Assembly (NCBI RefSeq): GCF_036588685.1
Contig: NC_086376.1
Coordinates: forward strand, 30,628,001-30,692,000
Length of the DNA: 64,000 nucleotides
Source of the DNA: Mytilus trossulus
Lineage: Eukaryota
Reading direction: 5' to 3'
Position 1 is the first letter of the stretch; each line of letters starts with the position of its first letter. The notes below the pieces were generated by a model. That model searched no databases, had not been told where the DNA came from, and saw nothing but the letters and a program-made list of their open reading frames with translations. Of this stretch, positions 22,401 through 50,508 are shown piece after piece. The position numbers and the translations under genes are program-made.

Positions 22401-25400
22401 TAAAGACCTATTTGATTTGTATTATCATCTCTAACAACTTAGTTGAAGTTGATATTTGTTATGAAATTTTCTTAAAACTTTTACAGAATGGTGATTTGGT
22501 ATGTCTACAGTTTGAATTTCAAATTTTGTTCGTCAATCAAAAAACACATAATGAAAATTGAACTTACAAATTTCTGAATTGAAAGTTAAATTGTGTACCT
22601 TTCAAAAATTTAGTCTGTTAAATAGCATAATATTTATTTTTAACACACAAAAAAATTAAGTCTCAACTAGTGCCATACAAACCAAAAAAGTGTGTGAAAT
22701 TGTGTATAAATATAAAACATACATGACAATAATTAGTTATTATATAGAAAGGTATAAGCAAAGCAAAAATTATAGTCCATATATATGTAAAGAGAAAATT
22801 TCCATGACAAAATTCCACATGAATCTAAAATACTCTGCACATATCTGTTAATGTAGGATATCATATTATATATATCATCTAAAACTTTCACCAAAAACAG
22901 GATTGATATGTGTTTCTGTTGGGAAAAATTGTTTAATCATTTACCTTCAATGCCAATTCTATTTATATTAAAAGTGTTCCATATTAACATGCAATGTGCT
23001 CATTTGTAGATCTATTAGTATTATATATATATATATATATTTATAAATATGAATATAATATTTTGTCTAAACGTCAGTCTAACAATGTAAGATCTGTAAA
23101 TATATATATCTTAGTAGTATGAGTTCACATCCCATTGAGGGAAGAACAGAAAATTGGCGTATGCAATTTACAGTTTTAACATTGTTGGGCTGTTATTTTA
23201 GACAAATTATATCTATTTATATGGAAGCATGGGTATATTCACACAATATCTTTTTACAAGTATGCATAAAATGGTACAGCTAGCTAGCATTTTAAACATG
23301 AAATACTTATTTGTATATAGAATCAATGATTAAATTTTCTTTTTTTTATCAACTTAGTTTTCTCGTTTGAATTGTTTTACATTGTCCTATCGGGTCCTTT
23401 TAAACCTATATGGTATGGGCTTTGCTCATTGTTGAAGGCCATCTATTGACCTACAGTTGTCAATGTCTGTGCCATTTTTGGTCTCTTGTGGACAGTTGTC
23501 TCATTGGCATTCATACCACATCTTCTTTTTTTTATATTTGTCACATTAAACAGAATTGGATATCTTCAAAAAAGGTTGAAAATAAACATGGTATTCAATT
23601 TTTTCCATAAAATGTATGCTGGCTTCTACAGTGAATAAGTAATAAGTGCTGAATTAGGTTTTTTTCCAGAATTATGAGAAGATCAATAATATTCAGTACT
23701 AATTTTCAATAAAGAAAACAGTGTTTTAGGTTCATTTACTATTCAAGCTAAGACTAACTTGCATATAAATCTAGTAAATAATTGGGTAGTCTACTTCAAA
23801 GTTTAATGAAGGAGTAGAATGATATTATGATACAGATAAGTAGAAGCAGTCACCACAGCTAGGAACACTTAGTACAAGTTGTAGAGACACCATAAGCTAC
23901 ACATTATATAATAATCTCAAATCACAAATACTTACCAAATATAATCTCCTTTAATATAATTGTAGTGATATTGTTATAGTTAATAAAGACAAATATATAA
24001 AAAAGCAAATGATTCATACATTGCATTTAAAAAGTAATAATAGTATATCAATTTTATCTTTTTCCTATGGGGTCAGTTTTTAATTGCTTGAGGAAGCTGG
24101 AGATCTACTGACCTTCAGTACAAAAACTGATGATCGTAGTCACTTAAGATAGAAGTCAGGTACACAAGCAGGTGATGCAGCGGTAAAACAAATTAAACCA
24201 CTGGATCACCAAGTATAACTAACATTTATACATAAATGTATTAAAAATATAACTATGCTGACCAATTTTCTTTTCTATAAACAAATACTGTCCTGTTTGC
24301 AATATCATATATCATATATTATTGTAAAGACCGTTTAATGCAGTGTCATACTGTAAAAACAAAAATTTTCATGGAGGATTTTTTTTTTTTAAATTCGTGG
24401 AAAGAATATTATATCCACAAAATTGAAACCTCCAAGGAAATTTAACTTACATATGATATCACTTCCCTTTACTGGAAACCACGAATGTAAATTCCCATGA
24501 AATCTTATATAGAGACAAAACCATGAAATTTTTATCCCACTAAAAAATAAATGTTTCTGCAGTATCTGTCAACATTAAAAGGTGTAAAATGCCTAATGGT
24601 GTCTGCCTTTTTAAAAACTCATTATTGCATGTAGAAATGGTAACATCCTAAATTTGATAAATAACTGTAACAAACATGATCAAAACACTACAACTATCTA
24701 AAACTTACCATCTGTGTTGACAATATCTGCCATCACCTTCCTTATGTTATGTGTATTGGCATTGTCTATATCCATGGTTGCCACTCCTTCAAAATATGAA
24801 TATTTTTAAATGTAAAGCACATGTGTATCAGCTTGTAGTATTTGTTACATGCTTATTATTCATAGATGATATGGCATGGTTACCTGTTTTTAATATTGTC
24901 TGCCTGTTGAATAATGTATTACTTTTGTTGGAGTTGCTCTCTTAAGATTTCAACATTGCTTATGTTTGTTAGTATATCAATGTTTTCATTTTTATTGTTG
25001 CAAAGTGTTTGTCCATCTTTATTGATTTAATGAACTTGTTCATGTCTTGGCATTATCTGCATAGCACATAAAAAATTAAAAATTAAAAACATAAGAAAAT
25101 AATAATTCAATCCCAAACTTACACTTAACTATATAATCATTTATGATACATATGTCAACTTTGTCTGGGCTAAGTGGAAAAAAGAAGTTTGGCTTTGACA
25201 AAGGCTAAAAACCACACCCCATAAACCACAATATCCGTCAGATCAGAACTTTTAATTAAGGTTGCCAACAAACAAATTGCATTTGCACTCAGTATCATTA
25301 ATTAAAGGGGGAAAAAACACATTGCTCTGTACATCTTATCATTCAAAAATAAAAGAAAAATACCTAAATTTATTGAGGGTGCACAGACTTCTATCTTTGT

Positions 25401-28400
25401 TGCAGCCTGGACAAAATCATTGGCAATCCTTTGCCCAAAGCCTTTCATGTGGTCAGGACCTGAAATTACATTTATCATCAAAATATAAATACACATGTAA
25501 AAAAGGAAACTCCATGTACATTTTAAAATAAACTGTTTTGCTTATAAAAAAGATACCTTATCTTCTCAGTTGAAATTGGTAAAAATTCTATTTCTATCAA
25601 TAGCAATATTTCATACTTCAAATACTTGTGTCTTCAATAAAAATGAAACCATATCTGTGCTTACCACAAAACTCAACTGTTTTTGAATCTTTGTTAATCA
25701 TTATAGATACAATAGTATCCCCTCTGTCCAACATCTTATTCACCTGCAAGTAAAAAGAAATTTATCAAACAAACTTGAATACTAGTCAAAACAGATCAAG
25801 CGTACAGAATATCATATATACATAAAAAGACATTGATAAAAATTCTATCTATAAATTATTTTTTTAATGTAAGCCTTTGTTAAAGAACACCATTTAGAAA
25901 AAAAATCTGAGTTTCAATGTAAAAATCTAATAAAGATACTGAAACATAAAAAGAAATGACACCTATTAAATGTTTGGTAATGAAAGTTGTTGCAAAGAAT
26001 ATGAGTTATTAAAGCTACTACTGCAATTGTAATTTGATGTTGAACTTACAACTGCCTTCACCTTTTCCCAATCTTCCTCACTTTTTCTGTCCTATAAATA
26101 TATAATAGAAATTATTTACATATTGGCACAGTAATTATGCACTTCCATTTTTTGTTGTTGCAAAAACTATAACAACAAATGGGAATCAAAGATAATGAAA
26201 CATGTAACACCTGTTAATATTGTAAAACAAGATGATATGTATATACATATAATGAATTATCGATATAGAGTCTTGATATATTATCTGTGCTCATAGATAA
26301 AGGTTTATGTTGTTCTAAGAAACTATCTATTTGCCTAGTATTTGCATTATCTATGGTTCTTAGGTATAGTCTGTATGAGTTGTCTTTGGTTCTATATACA
26401 ATTTTTATGTCTTGTCTGTGGTTCTTAGGTAAAGTCTATATGTAATGTTTGTGGTTCTTATATACAGTTTATATGTCTTGTCTGTGGTTCTTAGGTACAG
26501 TTTATATGTCTTGTCTGTGGTTCTTAGGTACAGTTTATATGTAATGTTTGTGGTTCTTTTATAGTTTATATGTATTGTTTGTGGTTCTTATGTACAGTTT
26601 ATATGTCTTGTCTGTGGTTCTTAGGTACAGTTTATAAGTCTTGTCTGTGGTTCTTAGGTACAGTTTATATGTCTTGTCTGTGGTTCTTACATACAGTTTA
26701 TATGTATTGTTTGTGGTTCTTAGGTACAGTTTATATGTCTTGTCTGTGGTTCTTAGGTACAGTTTATATGTAATGTTTGTGGTTCTTTTATAGTTTATAT
26801 GTCTTGTCTGTGGTTCTTAGGTAGAGTCTTTATGTCTGTGGTTCTAAGGTAGAGTCTTTATGTCTGTGGTTCTTAGGTACAGTCTATATCTATTGTCTGT
26901 GGTTCTTAGGTATAGTCTTTATGTCTTGCCTGTGGTTCTTACATACAGTTTATATGTCTTGTTTGTGGTTCTTAGGTACAGTTTATATGTATTGTTTGTG
27001 GTTCTTAGGTACAGCTTATATGTCTTGTTTGTGGTTCTTAGGTACAGTTTATATGTCTTGTTTGTGGTTCTTAGGTACAGTTTATATGTATTGTTTGTGG
27101 TTCTTAGGTACAGTTTATAAGTCTTGTCTGTGGTTCTTAGGTACAGTTTATGTTTCTGGTCTGTGGTTCTTAGGTACAGTTTATATGTCTTGTCTGTGGT
27201 TCTTACATACAGTTTATATGTCTTGTCTGTGGTTCTTACATACAGTTTATATGTATTGTTTGTGGTTCTTAGGTACAGTTTATATGTCTTGTCTGTGGTT
27301 CTTAGGTACAGTTTATATGTATTGTTTGTGGTTCTTTTATAGTTTATATGTATTGTTTGTGGTTCTTATATACAGTTTATAAGTCTTGTCTGTGGACCTT
27401 AAGTAGAGTCATTATGTCTGTGGTTCTTAGGTAGAGTCTTTATGTCTGTGGTTCTTAGGTACAGTCTATATCTATTGTCTGTGGTTCTTAGGTATAGTCT
27501 TTATGTCTTGCCTGTGGTTCTTACATACAGTTTATATGTATTGTTTGTGGTTCTTATATACAGTTTATATGTCTTGTCTGTGGTTCTTAGGTACAGCTTA
27601 TATGTCTTGTCTGTGGTTCTTATATACAGTTTATATGTAATGTTTGTGGTTCTTTTATAGTTTATATGTCTTGTCTGTGGTTCTTAGGTAGAGTCTTTAT
27701 GTCTGTGGTTCTTAGGTAGTCTATATCTATTGTCTGTGGTTCTTAGGTATAGTCTTTATGTCTTGCCTGTGGTTCTTATATACAGTTTATATGTCTTGTC
27801 TGTGGTTCTTATGTACAGTTTATATGTCTTGTCTGCGGTTCTTTTATACAGTTTATATGTCTTGTCTGTGGTTCTAAGGTAGAGTCTTTATGTTTGTGGT
27901 TCTTATGTACAGTCTATATCTATTGTCTGTGGTTCTTAGGTACAGTTTATATGTCTTGTCTGTGGTTCTTATATACAGTTTATATGTATTGTTTGTGGTT
28001 CTTATATACAGTTTATATGTCTTGTCTGTGGTTCTTAGGTACAGCTTATATGTCTTGTCTGTGGTTCTTATATACAGTTTATATGTCTTGTCTGTGGTTC
28101 TTAGGTACAGCTTATATGTCTTGTCTGTGGTTCTTATATACAGTTTATATGTCTTGTCTGTGGTTCTTATATACAGTTTATATGTCTTGTCTGTGGTTCT
28201 TAGGTACAGCTTATATGTCTTGTCTGTGGTTCTTATATACAGTTTATATGTCTTGTCTGTGGTTCTTAGGTACAGCTTATATGTCTTGTTTGTGGTTCTT
28301 ATATACAGTTTATATGTCTTGTCTGCGGTTCTTTTATACAGTTTATATGTCTTGTCTGTGGTTCTAAGGTAGAGTCTTTATGTTTGTGGTTCTTATGTAC

Positions 28401-31158
28401 AGTCTATATCTATTGTCTGTGGTTCTTAGGTACAGTTTATATGTCTTGTCTGTGGTTCTTATATACAGTTTATATGTATTGTTTGTGGTTCTTATATACA
28501 GTTTATATGTCTTGTCTGTGGTTCTTAGGTACAGCTTATATGTATTGTTTGTGGTTCTTATATACAGTTTATATGTCTTGTCTGCGGTTCTTTTATACAG
28601 TTTATATGTCTTGTCTATGGTTCTTAGGTACAGCTTATATGTCTTGTCTGTGGTTCTTATATACAGTTTATATGTATTGTTTGTGGTTCTTATGTACAGT
28701 TTATATGTCTTGTCTGTGGTTCTTAGGTACAGCTTATATGTCTTGTCTGTGGTTCTTATATACAGTTTATATGTATTGTTTGTGGTTCTTATGTACAGTT
28801 TATATGTCTTGTCTGTGGTTCTTATGTACAGTTTATATGTCTTGTCTGTGGTTCTTATATACAGTTTATATGTATTGTTTGTGGTTCTTATATACAGTTT
28901 ATATGTCTTGTCTGTGGTTCTTAGGTACAGTTTATATGTCTTGTCTGTGGTTCTTATATACAGTTTATATGTATTGTTTGTGGTTCTTATATACAGTTTA
29001 TATGTCTTGTTTGTGGTTCTTATATACAGTTTATATGTCTTGTTTGTGGTTCTTATATACAGTTTATATGTCTTGTCTGTGGTTCTTAGGTACAGTTTAT
29101 ATGTCTTGTCTGTGGTTCTTAGGTACAGTTTATATGTATTGTTTGTGGTTCTTTTATAGTTTATATGTATTGTTTGTGGTTCTTATATACAGTTTATATG
29201 TATTGTTTGTGGTTCTTATATACAGTTTATATGTCTTGTTTGTGGTTCTTATATACAGTTTATATGTCTTGTCTGTGGTTCTTTTATAGTTTATATGTAT
29301 TGTTTGTGGTTCTTTTATAGTTTATATGTATTGTTTGTGGTTCTTATATACAGTTTATATGTATTGTTTGTGGTTCTTATATACAGTTTATATGTCTTGT
29401 TTGTGGTTCTTATATACAGTTTATATGTCTTGTCTGTGGTTCTTAGGTACAGCTTATATGTCTTGTCTGTGGTTCTTACATACAGTTTATATGTATTGTT
29501 TGTGGTTCTTATATACAGTTTATATGTCTTGTCTGTGGTTCTTTTATAGTTTATATGTATTGTTTGTGGTTCTTATATACAGTTTATATGTATTGTTTGT
29601 GGTTCTTATATACAGTTTATATGTCTTGTTTGTGGTTCTTATATACAGTTTATATGTCTTGTCTGTGGTTCTTAGGTACAGCTTATATGTCTTGTCTGTG
29701 GTTCTTACATACAGTTTATATGTCTTGTTTGTGGTTCTTATATACAGTTTATATGTATTGTTTGTGGTTCTTTTATAGTTTATATGTATTGTTTGTGGTT
29801 CTTATATACAGTTTATATGTATTGTTTGTGGTTCTTATATACAGTTTATATGTCTTGTTTGTGGTTCTTATATACAGTTTATATGTCTTGTCTGTGGTTC
29901 TTAGGTACAGCTTATATGTCTTGTCTGTGGTTCTTACATACAGTTTATATGTATTGTTTGTGGTTCTTATATACAGTTTATATGTCTTGTCTGTGGTTCT
30001 TATGTACAGTTTATGTTTCTGGTCTGTGGTTCTTAGGTACAGTTTATATGTCTTGTCTGTGGTTCTTAGGTACAGCTTATATGTCTTGTCTGTGGTTCTT
30101 ATGTACAGTTTATATGTATTGTTTGTGGTTCTTATATACAGTTTATATGTCTTGTCTGTGGTTCTTATGTACAGTTTATGTTTCTGGTCTGTGGTTCTTA
30201 GGTACAGTTTATATGTATTGTTTGTGGTTCTTATATACAGTTTATATGTCTTGTCTGTGGTTCTTATGTACAGTTTATGTTTCTGGTCTGTGGTTCTTAG
30301 GTACAGTTTATATGTAATGTTTGTGGTTCTTTTATAGTTTATATGTCTTGTCTGTGGTTCTTAGGTAGAGTCTTTATGTCTGTGGTTCTTAGGTAGTCTA
30401 TATCTATTGTCTGTGGTTCTTAGGTATAGTCTTTATGTCTTGCCTGTGGTTCTTATATACAGTTTATATGTCTTGTCTGTGGTTCTTATGTACAGTTTAT
30501 ATGTCTTGTCTGCGTTCTTTTATACAGTTTATATGTCTTGTCTGTGGTTCTAAGGTAGAGTCTTTATGTTTGTGGTTCTTATTTACAGTCTATATCTATT
30601 GTCTGTGGTTCTTATGTACAGTTTATATGTCTTATCTGTGGTTCTTATGTACAGTTTATATGTCTTGTCTGTGGTTCTTATGATAGTCTTTATGTCTTGT
30701 CTGTGGTTCTTAGGTACAGTCTATATGTATTGTAAATCCCGGCATCCCGAAAGCGGAAATGAAGAATTCCCGGATCCCGAAAGGATCAATCCGGAAATCC
30801 CGAGCTTATTAACAGCCGATACCGGAGTCCTGATAAAGGTCCTATCCCCCCTCATTTGACGCAAATGGTAGCCGAAAATGACTGAAGTAAACAGACATTA
30901 CTACCCTCAAGAATACAAAAAGGTGAAGTAACTTTGGTATTTTCATCTTTTAATCAGTGGTAGATCCAAAATTGTTTATGAAGCGGCCCATAGACTGCCA
31001 CGAAGGCGGGACAGCTCCAGTCAGGCTGAAGTAATCCCTTGTCTAATCATCAATTGTTTCCAACAAAAAAGGGGGACATTTTTTTGCTTTAAAGTTTAAT
31101 GCAAAGGTTATATTTGCAATATGATGGTTCTATTTTAATGTGTTACCCTTTTCGGCAT
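13414..31158 (-). CDS. ~500-aa protein: NRF1/ewg/P3A2-like DNA-binding region + acidic linker + Ulp1/SENP (peptidase C48) domain + PHD finger
   Basis: Phase-consistent exons in transcript order: 31147-31158, 26050-26091, 25665-25743, 25364-25459, 24709-24786, 23936-23948, 22251-22351, 21414-21478, 21011-21054, 20255-20319, 19775-19795, 18925-18984, 18240-18376, 17904-18032, 17136-17204, 16023-16111, 15310-15439, 14605-14704, 14302-14363, 13414-13524 (1503 nt, no internal stop). C48 motifs: SLKKNSWVTDKIMDAYLELV, SHWDLLII, FLNPMG, QQDGSSCGIYCLMFADKYL. PHD: CPCC..VKCITCCKFFHKKSHCVG..FTCALD. The 3' ten exons are secure; the 78-nt and 13-nt exons are less so. Confidence 0.82.
15310..18376 (-). CDS. 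Ulp1/SENP-like cysteine protease (C48) catalytic exons of the gene above
   Basis: W-x-T-D-x-I-M-D-A-Y-L motif, catalytic His in HWDLL (exon 17136-17204), oxyanion Gln and catalytic Cys in QQDGSSCG (exon 15310-15439). Confidence 0.9.
16484..17070. mobile_element. Non-autonomous element with long terminal hairpin (Crypton-like), intronic
   Basis: ~140-bp near-perfect palindrome at 16484-16625 (TTCAGGTCTCAGA..ATATACTGTGACATTCCTGGCTTAG / CTAAGCCAGGAATGTCACAGTATAT..TCTGAGACCTGAA) with a GCCGAGGCGAAGG loop. Second inverted pair ATTACGGATTAC (16628) / GTAATCCGTAAT (17056). Confidence 0.6.
20500..20892 (-). mobile_element. HINE/pearl-like (Helentron-associated) non-autonomous element, decayed
   Basis: Two diverged internal repeats (AACTCTAGAAC...CTTGAT...GTTTCATAACATTT), GACA microsatellite and terminal hairpin TATGCCCC..GGGCATA. 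Confidence 0.5.
23355..23535 (+). mobile_element. Abundant SINE-like repeat (..TTGTCTCATTGGCAATCATACCACATCTTCT family)
   Basis: The same family recurs in either orientation at ~34490-34890, 40545-40810, 44620-44820, 48170-48450, 49730-49810, 51270-51580 and 52395-52510. Confidence 0.8.
24349..24564. mobile_element. TA-flanked MITE (TACTGT...CAGTA), Tc1/mariner-like
   Basis: TACTGTAAAAAC...GTTTCTGCAGTA termini with internal CCACGAA-type repeats. Relatives at 42746-42940 and 61824-62033. Confidence 0.5.
26340..30732 (+). repeat. 33-bp minisatellite array C (~130 units), consensus TCTGTGGTTCTTAGGTACAGTTTATATGTCTTG, inside intron 1 of the Ulp1 gene
   Basis: Tandem periodicity with recurrent 31-bp and shorter deletion variants. 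Higher-order blocks, e.g. 229-bp and ~490-bp offsets between near-identical ORFs. Confidence 0.97.
30735..30855 (-). mobile_element. Truncated MITE (ATGAGGGGG.. termini family)
   Basis: Reverse complement of the 5' half of the element at 58228-58427 (ATGAGGGGGGATAGGACCTTTA...CGGGATTTC). Confidence 0.75.
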
Positions 31159-31159
31159 C

Positions 31160-31340
31160 TTCTAGACTGTCTCAGTAGTAAAGTAAAGTTAAAACGAAAG
31201 TAAACATAAACTTCGGAACCTCTCTTCTTTGTCTAAAAAATCCGAGTTTGATTAAGAGCCAATGGTAAGATAGATGACAAAAATGATTGGTAAATTAACC
31301 AATCAGAGCGTGGTCCATATCGTGGTTTTTAAATGGTAAG
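31160..31340. promoter_or_regulatory. Probable bidirectional CCAAT-box promoter of the Ulp1 gene
   Basis: Three CCAAT boxes (AGCCAATG ~31257, TGATTGG ~31284, AACCAATCAG ~31297) and CGAAAGTAAA ~31196 lie just upstream of the - strand ATG at 31158. A + strand donor AAATG/GTAAGA is at 31336. Confidence 0.55.
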
Positions 31341-31559
31341 AACCACAACTATTATACCTCCCGTTTTTGTAAAAACAACAGCACTCGAGGTCTGACAGTA
31401 TTTTACCAAGAAATGCACAAAATATTCAAAAAGAAGGCCTAGAAAATTTAAATATTGGTATGCACACATACTCCCCTGTCAGCACAGACAATTATATTTT
31501 TGTAAACGCGCCAAACTCGTTTCTAATATTTATAATAGAACTGAAAAGAAAATTGAAAT

Positions 31560-32015
31560 GGAAATGGGGAATGTATCAAAGAGATAACAACATGACCAAA
31601 GAGCAGATAACAGCCATAGGTCACCAATGGGTCTTCATTGCAACGAGAAAATCCCGAAACATGAGACTTGGGTGGATCCTGAGTCATATAAAGGGGTTCC
31701 TAACCCAGGACAAATTTGGGGGGGGGGGGGGGGGGGTGTGTTAAACTACATGTCCCCATTCAAATGCATTGATCGTCCAGTAAAGAAAGGGGGGGTTCCA
31801 ACATGTCCAACCCTCAGCCCCCTGGATCCGTGCCTGTGAGGCATGCTTTAGCTTGCCATTAAACAAAAATGTATACTAGTTGAGTGATAATGGACGTCAT
31901 ACTAAACTTTTCAATACAAAGAAAAAGAAACTAAAATAAAAATCATACAAAGGTCACAAAGGCCATAACTTCTGGCTCCTGAATAAGAAAAAGTGCAAAA
32001 TGCAGTGGGGATAAA
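31560..32015 (-). mobile_element. SINE-like repeat interrupted by a GGATCC-type MITE (~31666-31838)
   Basis: Flanks match 5735-5905 in reverse. The insert has inverted ends GGTGGATCC...GGATCCGTGCCTG and poly-G tracts. Confidence 0.65.
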
Positions 32016-32244
32016 AGCCTTTACTGTAAATCCTGAAATTACAATTATATAAATCATCTCGCATCTTTGTGCATTTCTTGAAATTGGTCATATTAATAAA
32101 TGCATGCAATATTTTCAGAAAATTTCAATATATAGGCTTTTTTAAAAAAAGTCAATCTTGTGCATGATTATCAATGATTATACTCGCACAATTAACACAT
32201 GTGGTTCTCAAAACTCAAAGGTGTCTATGCTATTTATGACAACT

Positions 32245-32725
32245 TTTATACCCCCGCTTTCAAAAAAGGGGGGTATACTGTTTTACCTCTGTCTGTCAGT
32301 CCGTCCGTCCGTCAGTCAGTCAGTCCGTCCCATGAATATTTTTCTTCGCATTTTTCGCAGGAACTACAATACAAGGATTTCTGAAATTTGGTTTCAGGGT
32401 TTATCTAAGTCATTTATACCATGTGATGCGTTTTCAGATTGATCACTTGTCAACTTCCTGTTAACCGAACACTTGTATGATTTTACACATGATACTGAGC
32501 CAAGTTGAAAATTTTCGTCACATTTTTCTCAGGAACTACAATACAAGGATTTCTTTAATTTTGTTTTAGGATTTATATAAGTCAGCTATACCGTGTGATG
32601 CGTTTTCAGATTCATCACTCGACAACTTCCTGTTTACCGAACACTTGCATATTTTTACACTATTTATATTATCCACTTGCGGCGGGGGTATCATCAGTGA
32701 GCAGTAGCTCGCAGTTTCACTTGTT
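32245..32725 (+). mobile_element. HINE/DINE-1/pearl-like Helentron-associated element
   Basis: TT-flanked. Subterminal IR ATACCCCCGC / GCGGGGGTAT, (CCGT/CAGT)n microsatellite, two ~175-bp internal tandem repeats, 3' hairpin AGTGAGC..GCTCGC. Confidence 0.8.
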
Positions 32726-33304
32726 AATAAAGTATAAATTTACAAAATATGTTTAGAACTATATGATTTTTATGTTTTTAAGCATAGATATAGTAGGTCA
32801 GGATCTGCCAACTCTCACTGACTGACTGAGCACATAAATTCAACACTAGTTTTTTGGTGTTGCTTAGTGTTTTGTTTTGTTTTGTTTTTCTTTTCTGCAT
32901 CTTATGTTTTGCCTTGGCATTGTCAGTTTCTCTTTCATTGCCTTTGGTTTTTTTTGTTATGTTAAATAACAAGTCACATATAACATGTATAATCATGATA
33001 ATTAAGGTCCTTTTTAATTTTTAGGGATTTTAAATTTTTTATTTAAAGTTAGGGATTTTATTCATAAAAGGGGGGATTTTCCAGTACGTATACTATTAAT
33101 AATGCTTTGAGCAATTTTAATGAAACTTGGTGAATTATTTTTGTATAACATAAACATGATAATTTTCCTTTTAATTTTAAAAAAAAATCTGATTTATGTC
33201 ATTGTACTATCATGACTTGGGATTAGGATAGTCTCAAGAATGCTTTCACAAATTTTTATGAAACTTTGGTGAATTGTTTTTATATCTTGACATAAACACC
33301 CTTT

Positions 33305-33880
33305 TTATTATTATGACCCAAAGTGGAGGGGGCATAATGTTTAACACTTTATCGTTTGTCCGTCTGTCCCAAAGTTGTTTTTTGTTCTCTTACATTACTT
33401 TAGTTTGCCTCAAACAAATTCAATTAAACTTTTACAAAAGCTTGTTATCACAATACTCAGATCAAGTTTGAATTTTGGTGATGTCAGTGTTACTGTACTA
33501 GAGTATCAGAGTTATGCCCCTTTAGAAATGGGGAAAATATGCTGAATTTTTGGTTTCCTGTTTTCTAAACTTTAGTTTGTCTCAACCAAATGTTATGAAA
33601 TCAATACACAATGCTTATAACCACAAAATACAGATTAAGTTTGAATTTTGGTAGTGTCTCTTTTACTAAATTCTATAGTTATGTTCTTTAAAAATGGAAA
33701 AAATTGTTTCAGCCTTCTAACTTAAGTTTCCCTCAACCAAATTTTATTAAACTTTAAAACAATACTTTTTATCACAATTTTAATCAGATCAATTTCAAAT
33801 TTTTGTAGTAAAACTTTTACCGTTCTTCAGTTATGTTCCTTTAAAACTTTGAATAATATGCAAGCTGGAGTATCATTCCC
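33305..33880 (+). mobile_element. Second, decayed HINE-like element
   Basis: 5' hairpin, GTCC microsatellite remnant, three diverged ~165-bp internal repeats. Confidence 0.55.
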
Positions 33881-35954
33881 TATTTATCATGTATATTTTT
33901 TTATAAGATGCAGAGTTAAGGAACTTTAGTTGTTGCAAAGTTATTTAAAATTTGTCCATTTTCAAAATCTTTGAAAGGTTTTAGAAATGTATTTGTTAAA
34001 AAAATCGCAGCCTTAAACTTATAGTCACTTGAGAGATCTATAAATTGAGCCAAATTATATACATGTTTTATGTCAATGAATACCACTGTTTGTGCATGTT
34101 TTTGTTTTTTTGGAGGGCGGGGGTCTTATTTGCGCAGTGCTCATAGTTTTTTAGTCGATCAATAAAATTCATTTAAAGCTTACAGACCAGCTATAAGGGC
34201 AAGAAGCTTATCAAGCACTCATGGTTTAGATTTTTATTAAACACACATTAATATACATATAAATGTACATTAAACAGAAAAAATATTGATGCAAGATGTC
34301 ATTCAACTTTTACTCTTTTATGTATAGGACAAGAACTATAGAAGGTACAGAGAAATAATATACAGCAGAAATGATAGGCAATGTAAAATTTGCAGAAGCC
34401 AACTAAACCTAAATGGTAAGGCACCTTTTAATTTTAAAAAGTTATTGAACTTGAAAGATGATTACTAGTATCATGATTACTATAAAAACTCAAAGATGTG
34501 GTATATTAAATATGAAAACTATCACGGCTTTGAGAAAGAAATTGTAGGCCTGTTATGACCTTCAATAATGAGAAAATCAATACCCTATACTATAGTCAAA
34601 GTATAAAAGACCTAAAGATGAAACATTGAAACAATTCAAACTGTAAAACTAATCATGCTAATTGCCTAGTTTATAACAAAATAAATTACAAAAAATAAAT
34701 ATGACCGGTATGAAACAACAACAACAACAACCACTAAATTTTAGTGTCAGACTAAACTGATAAAAGCTACAGGCTCTGAACTTTGGACAGGCACAATAGG
34801 AATATGGCAAGGTTATATAAAAATAAGATGTGGTATGATTACCAATAAGACAACTCTCCACCAGACAACCAATGATGTAAATTTCCTGCAAACATGGACT
34901 TGACTACTGTAAATCAACTAATTTTTCGTGAATACTTTATCTTGCATTTTATACTTTTTAGTCTACATCGCAGTTATTTATTTTTCTCGAGTTCAAGTTT
35001 ACTTAATGTATTTTAATAAGGAAAGATACACATGAAAAACATTTATTGCTGTTTCTCTCTCCATTTATAACATTTTATTTGCTTTTTTTGTGTATTTATA
35101 GGTGATCAGACATCTCAGTTTTCATGATTACTGAAGAGGAAACTTAAAGTTGAAATTTATTTACATAGTGCATAATTGGAATAATTTGAAATGGAATGTG
35201 TGCTTTCCTGCAAAAAAGAAATAGGAAATTTCAACATGTGATAATGACCATATAAAACAAAATGGAGTTCTATCATAGATACCCGAAAACACTATTGCAT
35301 AAAAGCAACAACATATCTTAATCAAAAGAAAGGAGAATGCAGAATAAATACTATTTTGTTGTTGAAAAAAGGATAACCAGTTTTATCCACTCATTTACAT
35401 CGCTCCCTCATATCAAATATACAGAAGAAGATCATTGAAGAACAATTTGCAAAAATGATTTCTCTTAGAATTGAAGGGAATTGTTTAGTGAATGGAATAA
35501 TGTATTCACTGAATTCTTACATAGTGGATTGAATAACTGTACACAAGCTGAAACAGAAGAAATTCTAATTTAAAATAACACGAAAAGTGTTTATTTTATT
35601 ATTTAATCTGCAAATATATAAATATTTTTTTTAGAACACCACAAATGATATAATGACATTCAAATTGGTTGCTTATTATTGTATCGCATTGAAACAATTA
35701 CAAAGAAAACAGAAGCATTTGCTCCAAAAAAATTATAAATCAAAGTTAAATTTATATAAAAAGTATAAACAATACCTAGATCTAAACAGTCAGACTGTAT
35801 TATTTTCAATGTCATTAAAATTTTGAGTCAAACATTTATTATTAAATTTTTAAATATCATTTGCATCAATTCTACAGTCTTTTAATAATTATATTCATAC
35901 TGTTAGTATACATGGTGTAGTGAAGAAATGTTTAACAAGTAAAAATAAGGAAAA

Positions 35955-36390
35955 ACATTTCCTTAAGGGAAATTTGATGTTCAGAAATTTCCTTGGAGGA
36001 AATTTGAAGAACAATGATTTCCTCAGAGGAAATTTGTTGTCTTGAATTTTCCTCCAAGGAAAAGTGTTTGTCAAAAATTTCCTCACAGGAAAAAAAATTT
36101 CCTCAAAGGAAAATGTGAAGCTACAAATTTCCTCACAGGAAAAAGTATTTCCTCAAAGGAAAATTTGAAGCTGCAAATTTCCTCAAAGGAAAATTTGAAG
36201 CTGCAAATTTCCTCAAAGGAAAAAGAATTTCCTCTAAGGAAAAAGAATTTCCTCTAAGGAAATAATTATGCAGCAAATTCCCTAAGGGAAATCTTTTTCC
36301 CTTGAGGAAAAAACAATTTCCCTTGAGGAAAAATCTTTTTCCTTCAGGGAAATTTGATTTCCCTTGAGGAAAAGTACTTTTCCTCTGAGG
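35955..36390. repeat. Cluster of palindromic TTTCCTCAAAGGAAA-type repeats (subterminal-repeat-like)
   Basis: About 20 copies of TTTCC(N5)GGAAA at ~20-31 bp spacing, switching polarity (TTTCCTCAAAGGAAA to TTTCCCTTGAGGAAA) near 36280. Confidence 0.9.
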
Positions 36391-36558
36391 AATTTGTTGA
36401 AAAAAGGGGCATAACTTTTTCAACAGTGGTGCTAGAGCCAAATTTTTTTAGGACAAATATCAGGGAACCAATACCAACCAAGTTATCAACTTTGTTTTGA
36501 CTTAAGTCTAAAAATTAAGGTGACAACTTTTGCACTCAGCGGAATTGCAAACTTGTCC

Positions 36559-38811
36559 CGGAGACTGTACTACGTTGTTGATATCAACAAATATGGCATT
36601 GATTTAAGTGGGATAACGACACTTACATTTGAGGCGAAGGCATGTCGAGATGTTTCAATTATTATGTCCAATTCAGTTGATGGAGATTCCTCAAAGCCCA
36701 TGTATGGTTTTATTATTGGTGGCTGGGCAAATGGAAAATCAGCTATTCGAAAACGGTATGACGATTCACTAACAAAGGATAGCAAGCAAAGCGTCAAATA
36801 CGACACCCCTGACGTTTGTAAATGTGATGAGTACCGACCATTTTGGATCAGTGCCATAAACGGAGATCTAAGGATAGGAAGAGGACTTATCATTGGTATA
36901 AAGGTTATAGCTGAGTGGACCGACCCAAATCCCTTTACAGTAAGAAGCATAGGAATATACACAAATCATGATAATTTAGGAGAATGGAAGGTACAATTAG
37001 AAGGTAAAAGTGTTTCACCTTCTCAATTTCTTAATGGCTTCAATACAATAGTTATTGTTTATAAGAGTTTGTAAATTTTGTTCTTTGAATTCAATTGAGA
37101 ATGAAATTTATTTCCTGATGAAATGCCCAGTATTCGAACAACAGCGAAAAGTAATTCTTCTTTAAAAATGGTTTATAATTAATATAAATACATAAAACAC
37201 ATGGTTGTTTGGTTTCTGACTTGCAAACATGAAGAAGTATGGAACATTGGGACTTTCATTTTTTATAAATATTTAACGATAAGAAAACAGATGCTATAGT
37301 TAAATCCATATTATCATATTAAACAATATCATTGTTGTTTTTTTGCTTCACAATATCTTATTATTTTGGAGTGAACACGTAGAACAAGATAGCATTACAA
37401 GGCAGTAAGAAACTTAAATCATTTATTCAATCATTCTGCATTCAAATATCCGAACAAGACCATTTACAAGAAGATAATGTATTGCCAAATAAGGGGCACA
37501 TAGAGCATGTATAAGGGAAAAAACAACATTGATTAGTATAGATATTAAGAATCTAATTACACAATCACAATACAATTTGATTGTAACAAAAACTTTGGTT
37601 TACAATATAGTTACATGAAAAATAAATAGATCTAACTCATATTCGTATCGAGGACCTGATTGTCTTCACACTTAAATAAATTAATTTTTGCTGATTATTC
37701 AGTGTAGATAAGTTTAAAATTTCTTAAGCAATGTCAAAGAGGGCATCTCTATCAGACTTCACATGAAGTTAAGAATTGATTTCAGCTTCAACACAATCGA
37801 GGAGCGTTTTTTTTTGGTCAATTCTGTCATTTCGTGGAATATTTGAAAAACGACCATTCCAATTAAAATATAGATCTCTGATTTCGCCATACTACGTTAT
37901 ACTACATATTTTAGATCAAATAACTACCGTAATCTCTTTTAAAATTTATATTGTCCAAAATGTTTACTTCTTGTCTAATTTACCAAAAAACTTCTACCAA
38001 GGAGTATTGTTAGATTTGTGAATTGTGAAGTTCTCGAACTTGTATTTTCATGTGTTTTGTAGTTGTAAACAACCTTTACGATGGCAGATTCTCTAGATGT
38101 AAAACAAACTATAAAGCAGACTTGACCATTTTGTTCTCAAAGAAAATACCATTGTTGCAATGTGCTGCCGTGTGTGATACGCAACTCTCATGCATCGGAT
38201 TCAACTATCATAATCAAAGGTAGGTTTTGATCCTCTGCATTGTCATTCCTCCAAATTATCTGAACCATTAAAAAGTATACTGGTATTAGATATATCGGAC
38301 AGATATACCACATACAATACCAAAATTTGAAACAGTGATGACATAAGCCAAACTTCTTTACTTTGGAGAGAGCGGAGGATATGACCCGAAAGAAAACGAC
38401 GTATGGAGTTTCTGTAGTGTATGATGCACGTCCGTCGCGTGAATATTTTTCGTCGCATCTTTCTCAGGAACTTTATAAAATTATAAACTTTTAGAGTTAA
38501 CAACCTTTAAAAAATTATATACTAAAACAAATCTAAATTTTAGATAAAAGAGGAAGAACACCGGTCATAATTTTGAAATCCTTTCATTATCCAAGAAGTA
38601 TTTTCTGAAAAGATTTAAGACGTAAAGCTAAATTCTATTAAAAAGAAAAAACCACATGAAGGTTATTAATGATTTAATCTATTTCAGCTGTGAACTAGTC
38701 GCAGTAAGTCCAGGTGTTATAACACAGATCCCTAAGATAAAAGAAGACGGTTGGAAATTTTATACAAAATGTTACAGATACGATAGTGCATGTCTTTGGT
38801 GTAACTTCTGA
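36559..38811 (+). CDS. Farnesoic acid O-methyltransferase-like (Methyltransf_FA) domain + PAN/Apple domain protein, 5'-truncated or interrupted
   Basis: Exon ~36559-37003: LTFEAKACRDVSI..MYGFIIGGWANGKSAIR..CDEYRPFWIS..IGRG..WTDPNPFTVRSIGI..GEW. Exon 38063-38219: LLQCAAVCDTQLSCIGFNY. Exon 38688-38811: CELV..GWKFY..*. Phases are consistent. No signal-peptide exon was found. Confidence 0.82.
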
Positions 38812-38949
38812 TGTTGCTTTTCGCCATCTTAGAGTTTGGTGTTGCTTCTGATGTATGGATGTTACTTTATTCAACTATATACTTCACTCGACTTGGTGTC
38901 ACTTCTGGATGATGAATATTACTTATGACGGGCTGGTGTTACTTCTAGA

Positions 38950-40200
38950 TACCGCGTGTCAGTCGACATTGTGAATATTCTGGATGTTGAATGTAACATC
39001 CAACGTGCTGATACCTCTTCTGGAGACTTGAGTGACAGTCGACATATTGATTCTTCTGGATGTTGAATGTAACACCTAACGGACTGATACTTCTTCTGGA
39101 GACTTGAGTGACAGTCAACATTGTGATTCTTCTGGATGTTGAATGTAACATCTAACGGACTGATACCTCTTCTGGAGACTTGAGTGACAGTCGACATATT
39201 GATTCTTCTGGATGTTGAATGTAACATCTAACGGACTGATACTTCTTCTAGAGACTTGAGAGACAGTCGACATTGTGATTCTTCTGGATGTTGAATGTAA
39301 CATCTAACGGACTGATACCTCTTCTGGAGACTTGAGTGACAGTCGACATATTGATTCTTCTGGATGTTGAATGTAACATCTAACGGACTGATACTTCTTC
39401 TAGAGACTTGAGAGACAGTCGACATTGTGATTCTTCTGGATGTTGAATGTAACATCTAACGGACTGATACTTCTTCTGGAGACTTGAGTGACAGTCGACA
39501 TATTGATTTTTCTGGATGTTGAATGTAACATCTAACGGACTGATACTTCTTCTGGAGACTTGAGTGACAGTCGACATTGTGATTCTTCTGGATGTTGAAT
39601 GTAACATCTAACGGACTGATACCTCTTCTGGAGACTTGAGTGACAGTCGACATTGTGATTCTTCTGGATATTGAATGTAACATCTAACGGACTGAATTTT
39701 TTCTGGAGACTTGAGAGACAGTCGACATTGTGATTCTTCTGGATGTTGAGTGTAACATCTAACGGACTGATACTTCTTCTGGAGACTTGAGTGACAGTCG
39801 ACATATTGATTCTTCTGGATGTTGAATGTAACATCTAACGGACTGATACTTCTTCTGGAGACTTGAGTGACAGTCGACATTGTGATTCTTCTGGATGTTG
39901 AATGTAACATCTAACGGACTGATACCTCTTCTGGAGACTTGAGTGACAGTCGACATTGTGATTCTTCTGGATATTGAATGTAACATCTAACGGACTGAAT
40001 TTTTTCTGGAGACTTGAGAGACAGTCGACATTGTGATTCTTCTGGATGTTGAGTGTTACTTCCAATGGGCTGATATTACTTCTGCAGACTGAGTGACAGT
40101 CGACATTGTTTTTTCTTTTTCTTCGGGATGATGAAGCTTACTTCTGAAGGGCTGATACTACTTCTGGGGACTGAGTGTCAGTCGACATGATTTTTCTTCT
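38950..40200. repeat. 76-bp tandem repeat (~16 units)
   Basis: Unit TTCTGGATGTTGAATGTAACATCTAACGGACTGATACTTCTTCTGGAGACTTGAGTGACAGTCGACATTGTGATTC with degenerate edges. Confidence 0.96.
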
Positions 40201-40314
40201 GGATCTGACCGGCTAGCGCTACTTCTTGGGTGTTAAACTTATTACTTTTTTGTGTTAAAATGTTTCGTCTTTTCGTTTGTTGTTACTTTTGTTGATTTTA
40301 TTCATTGAAGTAAA

Positions 40315-42400
40315 AGAGGGACGAAAGATAACATAGGGACAGTCAACCTCATAAATCGTAAATAAACTGACAACGCCGTGGTACAAACAGACAAACAATA
40401 GTACACATGACACAACATAAAAATCTAAAAAATAAACAACACGAATCCCACCAAAAAATAGGGATGATTTCGGTGCTCTGGAAGGGAAAGCAGATCCTGC
40501 TCCACGTGTGGCACCCGTCGTGTTGCTTATGAGATAACAATATAAAAAAGAAGATGTGGTATGATTGCCAATGAGACAACTATCAACAAAAGACCAAAAT
40601 GACACAGACATTAACAACTATAGGTCACCGTGCGGCCTTCAACAATGAGCAAAGCCCATACCGCATAGTCAGCTATAAAACGCCCCGATAAGACAATGTA
40701 AAACAATTCAAACGAGTAAAACTAACGGCCTCATTTATGTAAAAAAAAAATGAACGAAAAACACATATGTAACACATAAACAAACGACAACCACTGCATT
40801 TACAGGCTAAATAGTCTAATTCGGTAGATCACATTTATGAAAGGGAAGGAGATTGTAGTTACGACGTAGGGAACATATCCCATATTCGTTATCATTTGTG
40901 AAACGGTTATTCCATAACGGTCAACCAACTCGTGATGGCGTCCGTAAAATTTACGAAGAAATTATTTCAACTTCACCATTTGGAACTCTTGATTTAATAG
41001 CTTCCTTGTGAGAAACAACCCTCTATCAAGAAAATCATTATAGGAAATGCAAGCACGGGAGTTTCGTATCAATTGGGAGATATATACACCGTATACAGGT
41101 GCTGCTGGTATGTTGCTACTTAGAATTAGAAATGGAAAGTTCACAATTAGAAAGCTGAAATCATCTCATTTGTTTTGTTTTCAATCGACCCTCAATGTCA
41201 ATTTCTAGATGTAAGTCCAGATATGAGGCCGACTTAACTGTATCTGTTGTATCCTTTATATCTAGGTCAATGAGATAGATGCGTTCGACATATTCACCAA
41301 ATTTTGAATTATTTAGTGAAAAACATCATCTATAGAGCGGAAAGTAGAGTTACATGATATTGCTAACTTCTTATCTTTCTTCCTACGACGTTTCTGTATA
41401 AAGTCAGCCTCAAAATAATAAACAAGTCGGCAAGAAAAGGGCATAATTCGTTCCCATTTGAATCCCGAAAGTCTGTTGATAAACACGTCCGCCGAACGTA
41501 ACAAATATGTTGTCAATCATGAAATCAAGCATCTTGATAATGTCAGTTTCAGAGAATTTTTTGTTTGAGTTAGAGTGATCCTTTACAAAGTAGGATATAT
41601 CCCTTCCTAAGACAATATACTTGTTTCTTTGTAGGCCATTCTTTTTTATGAAACAAAACAATACCAACTCTTTCAATTTGTCTTTTAGATTGGAATGTGG
41701 AATACTTGTATAAAGTGTAGAAAAATGAAATGTTTTAATACTATTACCAGATGAAAGAGAGTTAGATTGTATGTACTCTAAAAAGTAAAAACACAAAAAT
41801 ACTGAACTCAGAGGAAAATTCAAAACGGAAAGTCCAAATTCAAAAGGCAAAATCAAGGTCTAAACACATCAAACGAATGAAAATAAAATATCTTTGGAAT
41901 TTGAAGTATCCACATCTGATTCACGCCAACTCTAAAATAGGCATTTTCACAATAACTTTGAAGCCCGTCTATAATTGCTGATAAAATAGATATTAATAAT
42001 TTAGAAAGGTTTCGTGGAGTACTTGGAAGACCTAGCAATATACCGTTGGTTTGTAAGGACACTTGTGCAGTTTAGGTATCCAATACAGTGATGGAAGATC
42101 CAGTTCATCATCTTTGGTTGAAATTCCAAAGAAAAACAGAGCAGACCTTTGATTATCCAGGATTTCCTCTTTAGTGAGTGTCGTGAGGGTATTTGTTGGG
42201 TTTCCAAGTGAATTTTCAATACCTTATTCATTTATCAAGCAGTTAATGTAACGAGTTGAACACACACAAATGATGTTGCTTGGGGCTTTACATGTATTTG
42301 CGGGGACAACAACATATTTGTAATGAAGGTAGGATAAGTGTTTTGCAACATTATGGTCTTTAAAGATTGATGTAGCATGGACATTGATAGTAACATACTG
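40315..42400 (-). mobile_element. Decayed Penelope-like retroelement (RT fragments) with nested SINE insertions
   Basis: Frameshifted RT pieces: TFHFSTLYTSIPH, DIIKMLDFMIDNIFVTFGGRVYQQTFGIQMGTN, FRSIDDV, SSNIPAAPVYGVYISQLIR. Interrupted at ~40545-40810 and ~41785-41890. Confidence 0.85.
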
Positions 42401-43832: not shown

Positions 43833-45940
43833 CCGGTGTTATATAGCCATTCTTCCCCCATGCCAGTTTTTCCCCCAGGGGAAAGACTGGCATGAGCCAA
43901 TGTTTCCCCCGGGGAAATTTTGGATCATTGTCATTCTTCCCCTGCGGAAAGTTTACAATACGTATACATATAGTAACTTTTCCCCCATGCCACTCTTTCC
44001 CCCATGATATAGATTTCAATATATTTATATGCATGTCTGGAAATTAAACCGAACAGTGTTAGAATTATATTTATTTGTATACAAATATGTTGTTCATTCA
44101 AATTTACACAAGTCTGTCTATGTGTCAACTAGTCTGTCTTTCTGTTTAGCAGTTTTCTATGTGTCCCCTAGTCTTTACGTTTTCAACTGTCTGTCTTTAT
44201 GTCCACAAGTCTGTCTACATATTCACCAGTCTGTCTATGTGTCAACTGGTCTGTCTTTCTATGTGTCTCCTAGTCTTTTTACATATTTAACTGTCTGTCT
44301 ATATGTCCACAAGTCTGTATACATATTCACCACTCTGTTTACATGTTTATCATTCTGTCTATGTCCACTAGTCCGACTAGAGACCATTTTCACTGGCTTT
44401 GAAATAACTTTCAGTGTAAACAGCGCATACATTTGACTTTCATTTCGGTGCTTTGTGTCTATTGTTTTTTAATTTAAGTGATTATTGTGCACCGTACTAA
44501 CAATTAAGTGAAGTCAATTGCAGATGATATTTTACAGTATTTTCTTGTGGTGTGCTGTCTCGTATTGTGTTGGAGGAGGGTTGAGTTTATTGCCGCCATG
44601 TTCTGTATGTGCCATTCCAGAGCCAGGAACAGTGCTACAGTGGTTGTTGACGTTTCATGTCGGTCATATGTTTTTCGTAAATTATTTTGTTATAAATAAG
44701 TCCGTAAGTTTGGTTTGAATTTTTTCACATTTTTATGGTAGGGGCATTCTAAAGCCGACTACATGAGGGTTTCTCGTTGTGAAATGCCGTACGGTCCCAG
44801 TGGCCTTTAATTACTTAATACCACGTCGAATTTGTATCATTAGTGCTGGAAAGTGTTCGACCCTATATATGCACCTGTAGGGCAGATGTTTTTTTTTGTA
44901 GATCTTGAACAGCTCAAACAATAATGTGGTTAGTCCCTGTACTTCCATGTCTTCCGTGCTGGCAAAAGCGGGTGTTAATATCTCCTCTAAGTTTAAAGAA
45001 GTTTCATCCGTATCGGACTTCTTCTCCTGAATGAAAGGTTTAAGTCGACGAGTATTCCTCTCTATCCGTGCTTTTTTTAGTTCTTTTACTTATTAATACT
45101 TTATACTTTATACTTTACTTGATATATCATGTGAAATCATTTCACCATAATACTTTGGAGATATCATAGACGTCTGTCCTGGGGAAAATCTACTAATTGA
45201 CCAGAAGTGGTAAAAGTAATTGTATTCATTTAGTCAATGATACCAAGGGTTCACGAAAGAGAATGGATGTGATCATCACATCAGAATGTGTTTCGTGTGT
45301 ATAAATATAAACTCTATTAATACCTATCAAAGGATTAATCATACAATGAAGCTTTGGTTACTATAAACTGATGCTGAGTTCACACGTAATTCGAATTCGA
45401 TTCGCACTAACTAATTCGAATTAGTTTAATTCGCATTTGAAATGTTTTACGTCCTAACGTCAATTCTACATCGAATTGCAATGCGCGTCAAATTCACTTG
45501 ACTGTCCAAACGACGTTTACTTTTAAGTCGTATTAACAAAACCGTGTTTCTAATGCAAATTGGATAATTCGAATGAGCCAATTCGAATCAATTCGAATTA
45601 AAAATGAAGAGTGTGTGGACGTGATTAGCGAATTCGATTCGCATTCGATTGAAATTCGAATTAAATGTACGTGTGAACGAGGCATGATATAAGAAAAGTT
45701 ACAATTCTTTTGTTTCATAAAAAATTCTTACCGCGACGTCGCCGACGTTATGTTACAAGGCGGAAAATTTAGCTTCTCACGCTACTACGGGGGAAAAATT
45801 GGCCTGCTCCTGGTTTTCCCCCCATAACGCTGAAGGGGAAAGTGGGATCATGCCAATTTTTCCGGGGGGGAATATTAGATCGATCCAGTCTTTCCCACCG
45901 GAAAATTTGGCATGGGGGAAGAATGGCTATAGGACACCGG
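43833..45940. mobile_element. Non-autonomous DNA transposon with CCGGTG.. terminal inverted repeats
   Basis: Left end CCGGTGTTATATAGCCATTCTTCCCCCATGCCAGTTTT; right end AAAATTTGGCATGGGGGAAGAATGGCTATAGGACACCGG. Internal CCCC/GGGG subterminal repeats and a degenerate tandem repeat at 44110-44370. No TSD recognised. Confidence 0.75.
45372..45684. mobile_element. PIF/Harbinger-like MITE nested in the element above
   Basis: TIRs TGCTGAGTTCACACGTA / TACGTGTGAACGAGGCA, flanked by TGA on both sides (TNA-type TSD); many internal ATTCGAAT palindromes. Confidence 0.75.
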
Positions 45941-49216: not shown

Positions 49217-50508
49217 TCATCGTCCTACCATAGAGACACCATATTCACAACTGCTGCTCTCGTCTGATGCTTTCACAACGTGTTCATAACAACCATCTGA
49301 AGATACTATCTTTTTACAGTCGTCAGGGATTTTTTTAACTTTATTTCCAACTCTGAAATTATTAAAGGGTGTACATTTTAATAAACAAGAAAGGTTATAT
49401 CGTGTGATGCGATAATCAAAAAGACAGCACTCGTCGTGTTATTAAATATACTGTTCACAAGACCCTGATTATGTACCTTAAGGAAAAAACAATAAAAAAA
49501 TGTCTTGATTTCTACAATAGAATCTCGTATGAAATCTGAAAATTCAAAAATGTTGGTGTATCGTTGCTAATTAGCAGCAGAATACCAGTAAATCTGCGAC
49601 TTATTCTCAGTGTAAATGTATTTGTGTTATTACAAAGAAAGGACGGAGACAAACGAGCGATGCAGGTTTAAACAATTATTATAATTTCAACGAAACAGGA
49701 GAAGTAGCACGTTTCGCACACATGATCTTACTGTAACCTATAATTTCTATGTCATTTGGTCTATTGTAGAGACTTGTCTCTGTGGCAATCATGCCACATC
49801 TTCTTATTTTTATATATATGATATTAAAAGCAATAAGTTAACCTAATGATTCTTGAAATTAAAGACCCGGAATATGATTTAATCGAAAGTCCTTACACCA
49901 AACTGTACCCGACCAGGCGATTTTAAAATGAACAAATTATTGATTTGATTTAAACTTACGTGCAACATTTGAGATATCCGCCACTGGAATGTCCACAGAA
50001 ACAACTCATACAGTTCCTTGTAATTGTAGAACCGGGATACATTATTTCGCCAGCAAAGAAACATGTGTCATACACGTTATTCTGACCTGAAATACAAAAT
50101 TGAAATTTTTAAAATAAATATATATTTCTATCGAAGTGAAAATTATAATTATCATGTAAAATTGGTCAGTATCGTCGTTGTAAATAGTCTCTGTTGTATC
50201 GTCTTTTGTATTTTATCATTTAATCTACATTCAGTGAATTTATAGGGTATCAAGTTTTCATATTTTATTTATTTCCATATTGGAAAACAAAATAGAAAAA
50301 AGAGAATACCTTTTAGCAACTGGTAACATTGGACTGTGTGAACAATTACAGAAAAAATATTAAACAAATGAGGTGACTTTAATACCAGCTTGTTAAAAAT
50401 AATTTTATGAAAAATAACCTTACCTGAAGTAGGAGGTATCACCCAGCAGGATCCATGGCAATAGTAAACAACAGCAAAGAGACAACATACAATAAATGCT
50501 ACTTTCAT
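49217..50508 (-). CDS. Beta-microseminoprotein (MSMB/PSP94)-like small secreted cysteine-rich protein, 115 aa
   Basis: Exons 50424-50508, 49960-50086 and 49217-49352 give MKVAFIVCCLFAVVYYCHGSCWVIPPTSGQNNVYDTCFFAGEIMYPGSTITRNCMSCFCGHSSGGYLKCCTVGNKVKKIPDDCKKIVSSDGCYEHVVKASDESSSCEYGVSMVGR*. Signal peptide present; 10 mature Cys in a C..C..CxxCxC..CC..C..C..C pattern. Confidence 0.85.

Follow-up and report, generated by a model that had tools for sequence, protein, structure and literature searches.

The locus examined here raises the question of whether an exon of a mussel gene has been disrupted by a transposable element and, if so, by an element of which kind. It lies in a 64,000-nucleotide stretch of the Mytilus trossulus genome (contig NC_086376.1, positions 30,628,001 to 30,692,000 of the forward strand; hereafter the window, in whose numbering all positions are given), where a block of palindromic repeats runs directly into coding sequence for a FAMeT domain. 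An earlier, sequence-only reading had proposed that a transposon terminus, possibly of Zisupton type, landed inside the host FAMeT exon. We are highly confident that a real, polymorphic transposon insertion is present in the host exon. Bases 35958–36568 probably represent the right end of one giant KDZ/Zisupton cut-and-paste transposon of at least 36.6 kb, a reading that we hold with less assurance.

The open reading frame (ORF) at 36436–37074 matches Methyltransf_FA (PF12248) with an E value of 4.9e-22, and the 14 named relatives of this frame (among 19 hits) are all Mytilus proteins. The 3′ remnant of the FAMeT-domain exon occupies 36569–37003 on the plus strand and ends at a phase-1 donor (GT at 37004). 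It is followed on the same strand by an intact PAN-like exon (38063–38219; PAN_1 E value 0.012, below the cut-off) and by the host gene's final coding exon (38688–38811), both in agreement with the RefSeq M. trossulus model P0001 (XP_063433068.1), which is identical to the window and begins at an internal methionine at 36664. About 150 bp past the stop of this gene lies a 76-bp tandem repeat (38956–40204; 16 copies, 90% matches). In nine paralogs whose exon start is intact, 26 residues separate G(L/V)VIE from Y(V/A)VD(I/V)N; none of this segment is present in the window, corresponding to about 26 codons lost from the 5′ side. A signal-peptide-like N-terminus precedes that exon start in six of the nine, and no signal-peptide exon of the FAMeT gene was found in the window, as had been noted earlier. 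The non-ATG start of the ORF, regarded by the sequence-only reading as foreign to the domain, is indeed so: the GTG at 36520 opens the peptide MTTFALSGIANLS, which does not align with the intact paralogs. A tblastn search of the window with the nine paralog N-termini did not recover the 5′ half of the exon; the strongest match elsewhere, with an E value of 0.028, lies in an intron.

Uninterrupted alleles were sought by comparing the stretch 36395–37100 with contigs from four of 21 public runs (X1, X2, X3 and X6), of which X1–X3 are DNA runs. The empty site is present in X1 (record 4, no differences over the 136 nt of 36571–36706) and in X3 (record 21, six differences over the 291 nt of 36571–36861). 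Both empty alleles run upstream into ...GCTGATATWTGG(C/A)AG, which encodes the A-D-I-W-Q/K that precedes Y-V-V-D in the paralogs; the window does not contain this motif, even with up to three mismatches allowed. The depths of the two empty records (10.2 in X1 and 13.6 in X3) cover every letter of window type at 36615 in both runs and, as far as the contigs show, X1 and X3, which come from one study, therefore carry the uninterrupted allele only. Since the FAMeT exon is whole in two runs, the insertion is polymorphic, and the disruption of the host exon that had been proposed is borne out by both alleles and paralogs. The insertion is likely to inactivate one copy of a multigene secreted FAMeT–PAN family, as the rest of the gene would be separated from its signal peptide and from about 26 codons.

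The position of the terminus was established from sequences that share it. An exact 20-mer from the terminal retrieved two metagenome loci, L001 and L002. L001 stays with the window up to the last base of ...CCCGGAGACTGT (36568), beyond which it enters a different flank, and contigs with loose ends behind 36568 number 10 in X1, 20 in X2 and 20 in X3. Beyond this position the X1–X3 contigs agree at only 0.45–0.47, and the flanks are therefore unrelated. Summed word depth (a sum, not a copy number) falls from 3536, 49558 and 7152 in X1, X2 and X3, respectively, at 36539–36562 to 26, 74 and 22 at 36587–36610. Because the window, L001 and these contigs share sequence up to 36568, the element terminus is placed there and reads inward as 5′-ACAGTCTCCGGGACAAGTTTGC; the final T may instead be a fixed target base, giving a CAG end. 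A many-copy defined end, unrelated flanks and empty sites together identify a DNA transposon, so that the proposed terminus stands while its details do not. It had been put at about 36558, and the shared sequence continues for ten further bases. The proposed target-site duplication (TSD), CGGAGACT (36559–36566, plus strand), precedes unrelated flanks in L001 and the run contigs and is thus element sequence, so that this TSD prediction fails; the predicted start of the left terminus, GGACAAGTTTGC, is also wrong since the true end is at 36568. Exact occurrences of CGGAGACT and GGACAAGTTTGC in the window are confined to the junction. If the TSD is 8 bp long, as given for Zisupton in PMC12730594, the first eight host-side bases, ACTACGTT (36569–36576, plus strand), are its predicted right copy and the left end would likely start with ACAGTCTCCGGGAC. 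No partner inverted repeat or second terminus was found within the window.

L002 departs from the window slightly earlier, after 36565, into a different flank, and smaller sets of loose ends lie behind the same position (three contigs in X1 and one in X6). After ...GGAGAC (window 36565), L002 (697–1131) and X6 record 29 continue into another recurrent sequence with a GTTATGCCC motif; this join also occurs in X6 at a depth of 40, with a TTCC-CATG-GGAA array of 21-bp period about 190 bp further on. A related element may have become nested here, 3 bp inside the terminus, or two ends may have joined with the loss of 5 nt between two AC dinucleotides. The join may also mark a left end starting with ACAAATCTGC, a candidate idea that competes with a terminal inverted repeat (TIR) of 58–93 bp. 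Such a TIR, or the existence of related families, is suggested by contigs that match 36476–36568 only (one listed in each of X1 and X3) and by loose ends before 36510/36511 in X2 and X3. Patterns for the terminal and for the L002 join gave no matches in prokaryote genomes and viral contigs.

The end is preceded by a subterminal array (35958–36393) of 18 palindromic TTTCC-N5-GGAAA units, counted with one mismatch allowed, so that an earlier estimate of about 20 was fair. Exact units number 16 at 35958–36372 and 18 in the whole window, compared with 0.06 on average and at most one in shuffled sequences. All 17 spacings are 19–21 or 29–30 bp and all fall within 1 of a multiple of 10, which is not an independent statistic as the units arose by duplication. 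L001 carries the same array (19 units counted), and that of L002 is shortened. The array is followed by the terminal 175 bp (36394–36568, plus strand), which is 96–97% identical to L001. This stretch had been described as about 170 bp of unique sequence; it is indeed free of the array and single within the window, but it is multi-copy in the genome. Word depth in the run contigs peaks at 36515–36562, and the last ∼58–93 bp occurs in more copies than the rest of the terminal, making it a candidate TIR. An Rfam scan of 30700–39000 returned no families. A similar array elsewhere in the window is found only in an unrelated TIR element at 43833–45940; this separate element of ∼2.1 kb has 41-bp arms with 90% complementarity, TTTCCCC-GGGAAA subterminal palindromes, nested repeats and no clear TSD.

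L001 is collinear with the window over 34308–36568, about 2.2 kb inward from the end. The array cannot therefore be a small stand-alone miniature inverted-repeat transposable element (MITE), a case considered earlier, in which both ends would lie near the array; the collinear interior of L001 and the lack of a left end in the window both disagree with it. The identity between L001 and the window is 96–99% over the last 570 bp; further in it is mostly 74–85% within 35001–36568, and the interior blocks are ∼70% identical by blastn, a step which suggests exchange or homogenization of ends between subfamilies. The interior contains a small, outward-facing, decayed multi-exon gene (31333–35532, plus strand) with candidate exons at 31333–31335, 34328–34415 and 35272–35532 (one internal stop); homologous decayed exons are present in L001, and neither Pfam nor Atlas gave a match. 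Two divergent first exons are separated by a CpG-richer segment with CCAAT boxes (30740–31400; observed/expected CpG ratio of 0.83, compared with 0.42 and 0.19 in the flanks), a putative bidirectional promoter.

At the far left of the window, the three 3′-terminal exons of a gene for a KDZ transposase (148–1505, plus strand) display 78–93% identity to bivalve proteins, with 86–93% to P0020 and 78–79% to proteins positive for the KDZ domain PF18758. Among the relatives, P0023, P0025, P0027 and P0040 pass the PF18758 cut-off and P0020, P0026, P0029 and P0036 fail it; single window exons gave no match. P0040 combines the KDZ domain with a weak CxC4 match (E value 0.016, below the cut-off). The Zisupton lead is plausible because this gene ends at 1505. 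No L002-type array was found within the window, and no left-end-like sequence was found between the KDZ gene and the convergent Ulp1 gene described below. Because the window holds neither a second end nor the 5′ exon half, the best reading is one KDZ/Zisupton element with a length of 36.6 kb or more: if this is one simple insertion, it starts upstream of position 1, includes the KDZ gene and exceeds 36.6 kb. We thus infer that the KDZ gene is linked to the end at 36568.

Between the KDZ gene and the terminus, a second multi-exon gene (13414–31158, minus strand) encodes ∼514 residues with an NRF1-like motif (exon 22251–22358), a Ulp1/C48 protease domain and a C-terminal PHD-like cysteine cluster. 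Ten upstream exons join without stops onto the 318-residue RefSeq model P0028, which matches Peptidase_C48 (E value 2.4e-8) and has a cysteine-rich end. None of 12 single window exons gave a significant Pfam match. The 35-residue NRF1-like exon, likewise without a Pfam match, scores 0.84 in Atlas to clusters of the NRF1/Ewg DNA-binding domain (PF10491) and finds NRF1 (PDB 8k3d) as its top PDB match, a weak resemblance that serves as a lead only. Past the stop of this gene, an exon-like stretch with a good donor (...GDEFLEGT; 12577–12660, minus strand) possibly belongs to a further gene. Among 30 scanned long relatives of the Ulp1 protein, the domains that pass the cut-off are MULE in five, YqaJ in three and DDE_1 in one; the long relatives of the Ulp1–PHD module are thus often transposon proteins, which we count in favor of a large element.

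Several observations weigh against the single giant KDZ/Zisupton element. Its left end, TIR pair and TSD were not observed, the left junction lying outside the window, and no second locus linking KDZ to this end was found in prokaryote genomes and viral contigs. None of the nine fungal Zisupton consensus starts shown in PMC12730594 begins with ACA, and three begin with CAG. The NRF1-like assignment is weak (Atlas 0.84; PDB 8k3d E value 0.52). The closest long Ulp1 relatives are MULE/SWIM fusions, and the KDZ protein P0026 is matched by none of the 149 Ulp1 relatives. At the junction itself, bases 36569–36570 are AC in the filled allele and AG or GG in the empty alleles (C36570 versus G), for which a single-nucleotide polymorphism would be the simplest account. 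Finally, the filled junction at 36568 is bridged by none of the 32 listed contig pieces (best 32 of 404), and it rests on the window.

In a less likely alternative, the terminus is that of an element which is smaller or non-autonomous, carries the Ulp1–PHD gene and is possibly related to MULEs, the KDZ gene belongs to a separate neighboring or nested element, and the 5′ half of the FAMeT exon was lost by an adjacent deletion or rearrangement. The mismatch at C36570 could then be a deletion scar, and the interior identity of L001 (∼70–80% beyond the last 600 bp) would mean that ends and interiors are shuffled among subfamilies. The MULE/SWIM–Ulp1(–PHD) proteins P0056, P0060, P0069, P0111 and P0196 share the same C-terminal Ulp1 module, often together with PHD (closest 30–37% identity), and the nearest long Ulp1–PHD relatives are fusions of this type (P0056, P0060 and P0069); in contrast, neither the RNase H part of MULE nor SWIM is present in the window gene, whose N-terminus is unrelated. 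A tblastn search with the 149 Ulp1 relatives, including MULE fusions, found nothing in the window (satellite blocks excluded) outside the Ulp1/PHD region 13400–19000, and thus no MULE-type exon; a MULE (MuDR) transposase with SWIM was not found within the window. The lack of a left-end-like sequence between the KDZ and Ulp1 genes also argues against two separate elements, and the ACAG end is unlike the G-starting ends of MULEs.

It is very improbable that the junction is real while the repeated terminal led the assembly to misjoin the upstream 36 kb. This reading has in its favor the high repetition of the terminal and, as noted, the lack of any piece bridging 36568 among the 32 listed; against this, the terminal and array span only ∼0.6 kb, yet the window and L001 are collinear for 2.2 kb inward, and the RefSeq models P0001 and P0028, which match the window exons at 100%, both lie on one 96.3-Mb contig.

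The reading in which the FAMeT exon is normal, with a CACTCAG acceptor at 36539 and the array as an intronic repeat or small MITE, can be set aside almost entirely: TTTTGCACTCAG is acceptor-like and the frame is open from 36436, but the AG at 36538–36539 is in phase 2 relative to the phase-1 donor at 37004 and lies in repeated terminal sequence that precedes dozens of unrelated flanks, the true alleles have different, paralog-like codons upstream of 36571, and L001 ties the array to 2.2 kb of interior. The empty alleles refute it as an ancestral state, leaving no more than a cryptic acceptor in secondary use.

One such candidate phase-1 acceptor (TTTTTTTAG|G, 36436–36452, plus strand; exon start 36452) lies in the terminal, where the frame is open with the FAMeT exon; it is in frame with both the host exon and the element exon 34328–34415. 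An in-frame chimera that joins the small gene of the element to FAMeT–PAN (307 codons plus stop) may thus be possible. This is a lead only: 6.4% of shuffles also leave the frame open through the terminal, and in L002 one extra nucleotide is inserted in that stretch. Among the matches listed from X6 (16 contigs; kind not recorded, possibly RNA), neither a loose end nor a joint occurred at 36452 or at 36540.

Returning to the single giant KDZ/Zisupton element, it would be of a known kind, and its membership in the KDZ group is probable and incomplete. It resembles Zisupton in having a multi-exon KDZ transposase (with PF18758 in close relatives and the weak CxC4 in P0040), a large size and defined ends. 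A fish Zisupton with a Ulp1/SUMO-protease domain and a size of roughly 11 kb was reportedly described by Boehne and coworkers in 2012; in the mussel, the Ulp1–PHD region has a convergent gene of its own, which also encodes the NRF1-like motif, and is not fused to the transposase, a third small gene and the phased palindromic array are added, and the size would exceed 36.6 kb. The canonical Zisupton structure is given as CxC4 plus SWIM (PMC11343200); the N-terminal part of the mussel transposase, where such zinc clusters would be expected, falls outside the window. PMC9297572 notes that Zisupton proteins have homologues in mussels. Very large KDZ elements that contain accessory genes and nested insertions have been described (PMC12477816, PMC9977147, PMC11343200), reaching 30.3 kb in Ectocarpus (PMC12477816) and 31.7 kb in Chlamydomonas (Zisupton-3_cRei; PMC9977147). 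The proposed mussel element would be like these in its very large size, its accessory genes and the nested repeats carried along, and would differ in its animal host and in spanning at least 36.6 kb without the upstream part of the transposase, 10.7 kb of it minisatellite. KDZ1–3 and KDZx1 of Cryptococcus are 6.4–10.9 kb long, have been shown to move and have an 8-bp TSD (PMC11343200). The likeness here lies in the insertional inactivation of a host gene, the extra ORFs and the expected 8-bp TSD, whereas the mobility of the mussel element is deduced solely from polymorphism and its many flanks. Our literature searches turned up no account of such an architecture, and Repbase, Dfam or other transposable-element libraries may already hold the family.

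As a model, the KDZ transposase encoded far to the left would cut at the ACAG...CTGT ends and duplicate about 8 bp of target (the TSD value of PMC12730594 and PMC11343200), so that A[C/G]TACGTT is expected to precede the left end. Spaced by two to three helical turns, the palindromes would be repeated sites for a dimeric DNA-binding protein encoded by the element, either the transposase itself or the accessory product that bears the NRF1-like motif, and this protein would pair the two ends. The half-sites resemble NFAT/STAT sites, and recognition by a host factor is also possible. Ulp1 proteases act on SUMO; the accessory Ulp1–PHD protein would remove SUMO and read chromatin, and in this way may counter SUMO-dependent silencing by the host. 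In its most extended form, the model describes a still-mobile animal KDZ/Zisupton element of well over 36.6 kb, whose own NRF1-like/SUMO-protease/PHD protein recognizes the phased TTCC-N5-GGAA end arrays and whose right end supplies an outward promoter and the in-frame acceptor at 36452, such that insertions into exons yield chimeric transcripts with the stop-free 307-codon frame; taken as a whole, we regard this as speculative and rather unlikely.

As an insertion it is unremarkable: a single haplotype has one member of a multigene family knocked out. The exact end sequence provides a probe for retrieving, from any Mytilus assembly, a KDZ family that is possibly very large, gene-carrying and recently mobile. 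Should the KDZ gene lie inside, the element would be longer than the 30.3- and 31.7-kb KDZ elements described above, and would be found in an animal. Gerdol et al. (2020; PMC7653742) do not settle the role of transposons in mussel presence–absence variation, and find transposon genes under-represented among dispensable ones. A polymorphic giant element makes this role testable; if the reading is true, still-mobile giant elements would create hemizygous blocks of tens of kilobases that feed such variation.

Three blocks of a 33-bp minisatellite (2457–5726, 7751–10787 and 26350–30733) make up 10.7 kb, or 29% of 1–36568. The blocks are related to one another, the second is inverted, one falls within the first intron of the Ulp1 gene, and they give rise to spurious long ORFs. 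Inverted GACATTTGCGCTTT-type repeats at 6220–6940, between the first two blocks, have by eye the look of a small TIR element. A GC-rich small MITE of CCCGAAAT type is present in two copies (30734–30860 and 58230–58430), one of them partial. Outside the element, four cysteine-containing exons at 52978–55190 (plus strand), of which three pieces gave no Pfam match, resemble an ependymin-related protein, and a signal-peptide-like exon (50426–50506) lies on the opposite, minus strand. A 149-codon frame at 41410–41859 (minus strand) has no Pfam match and resembles a retroelement reverse-transcriptase fragment.

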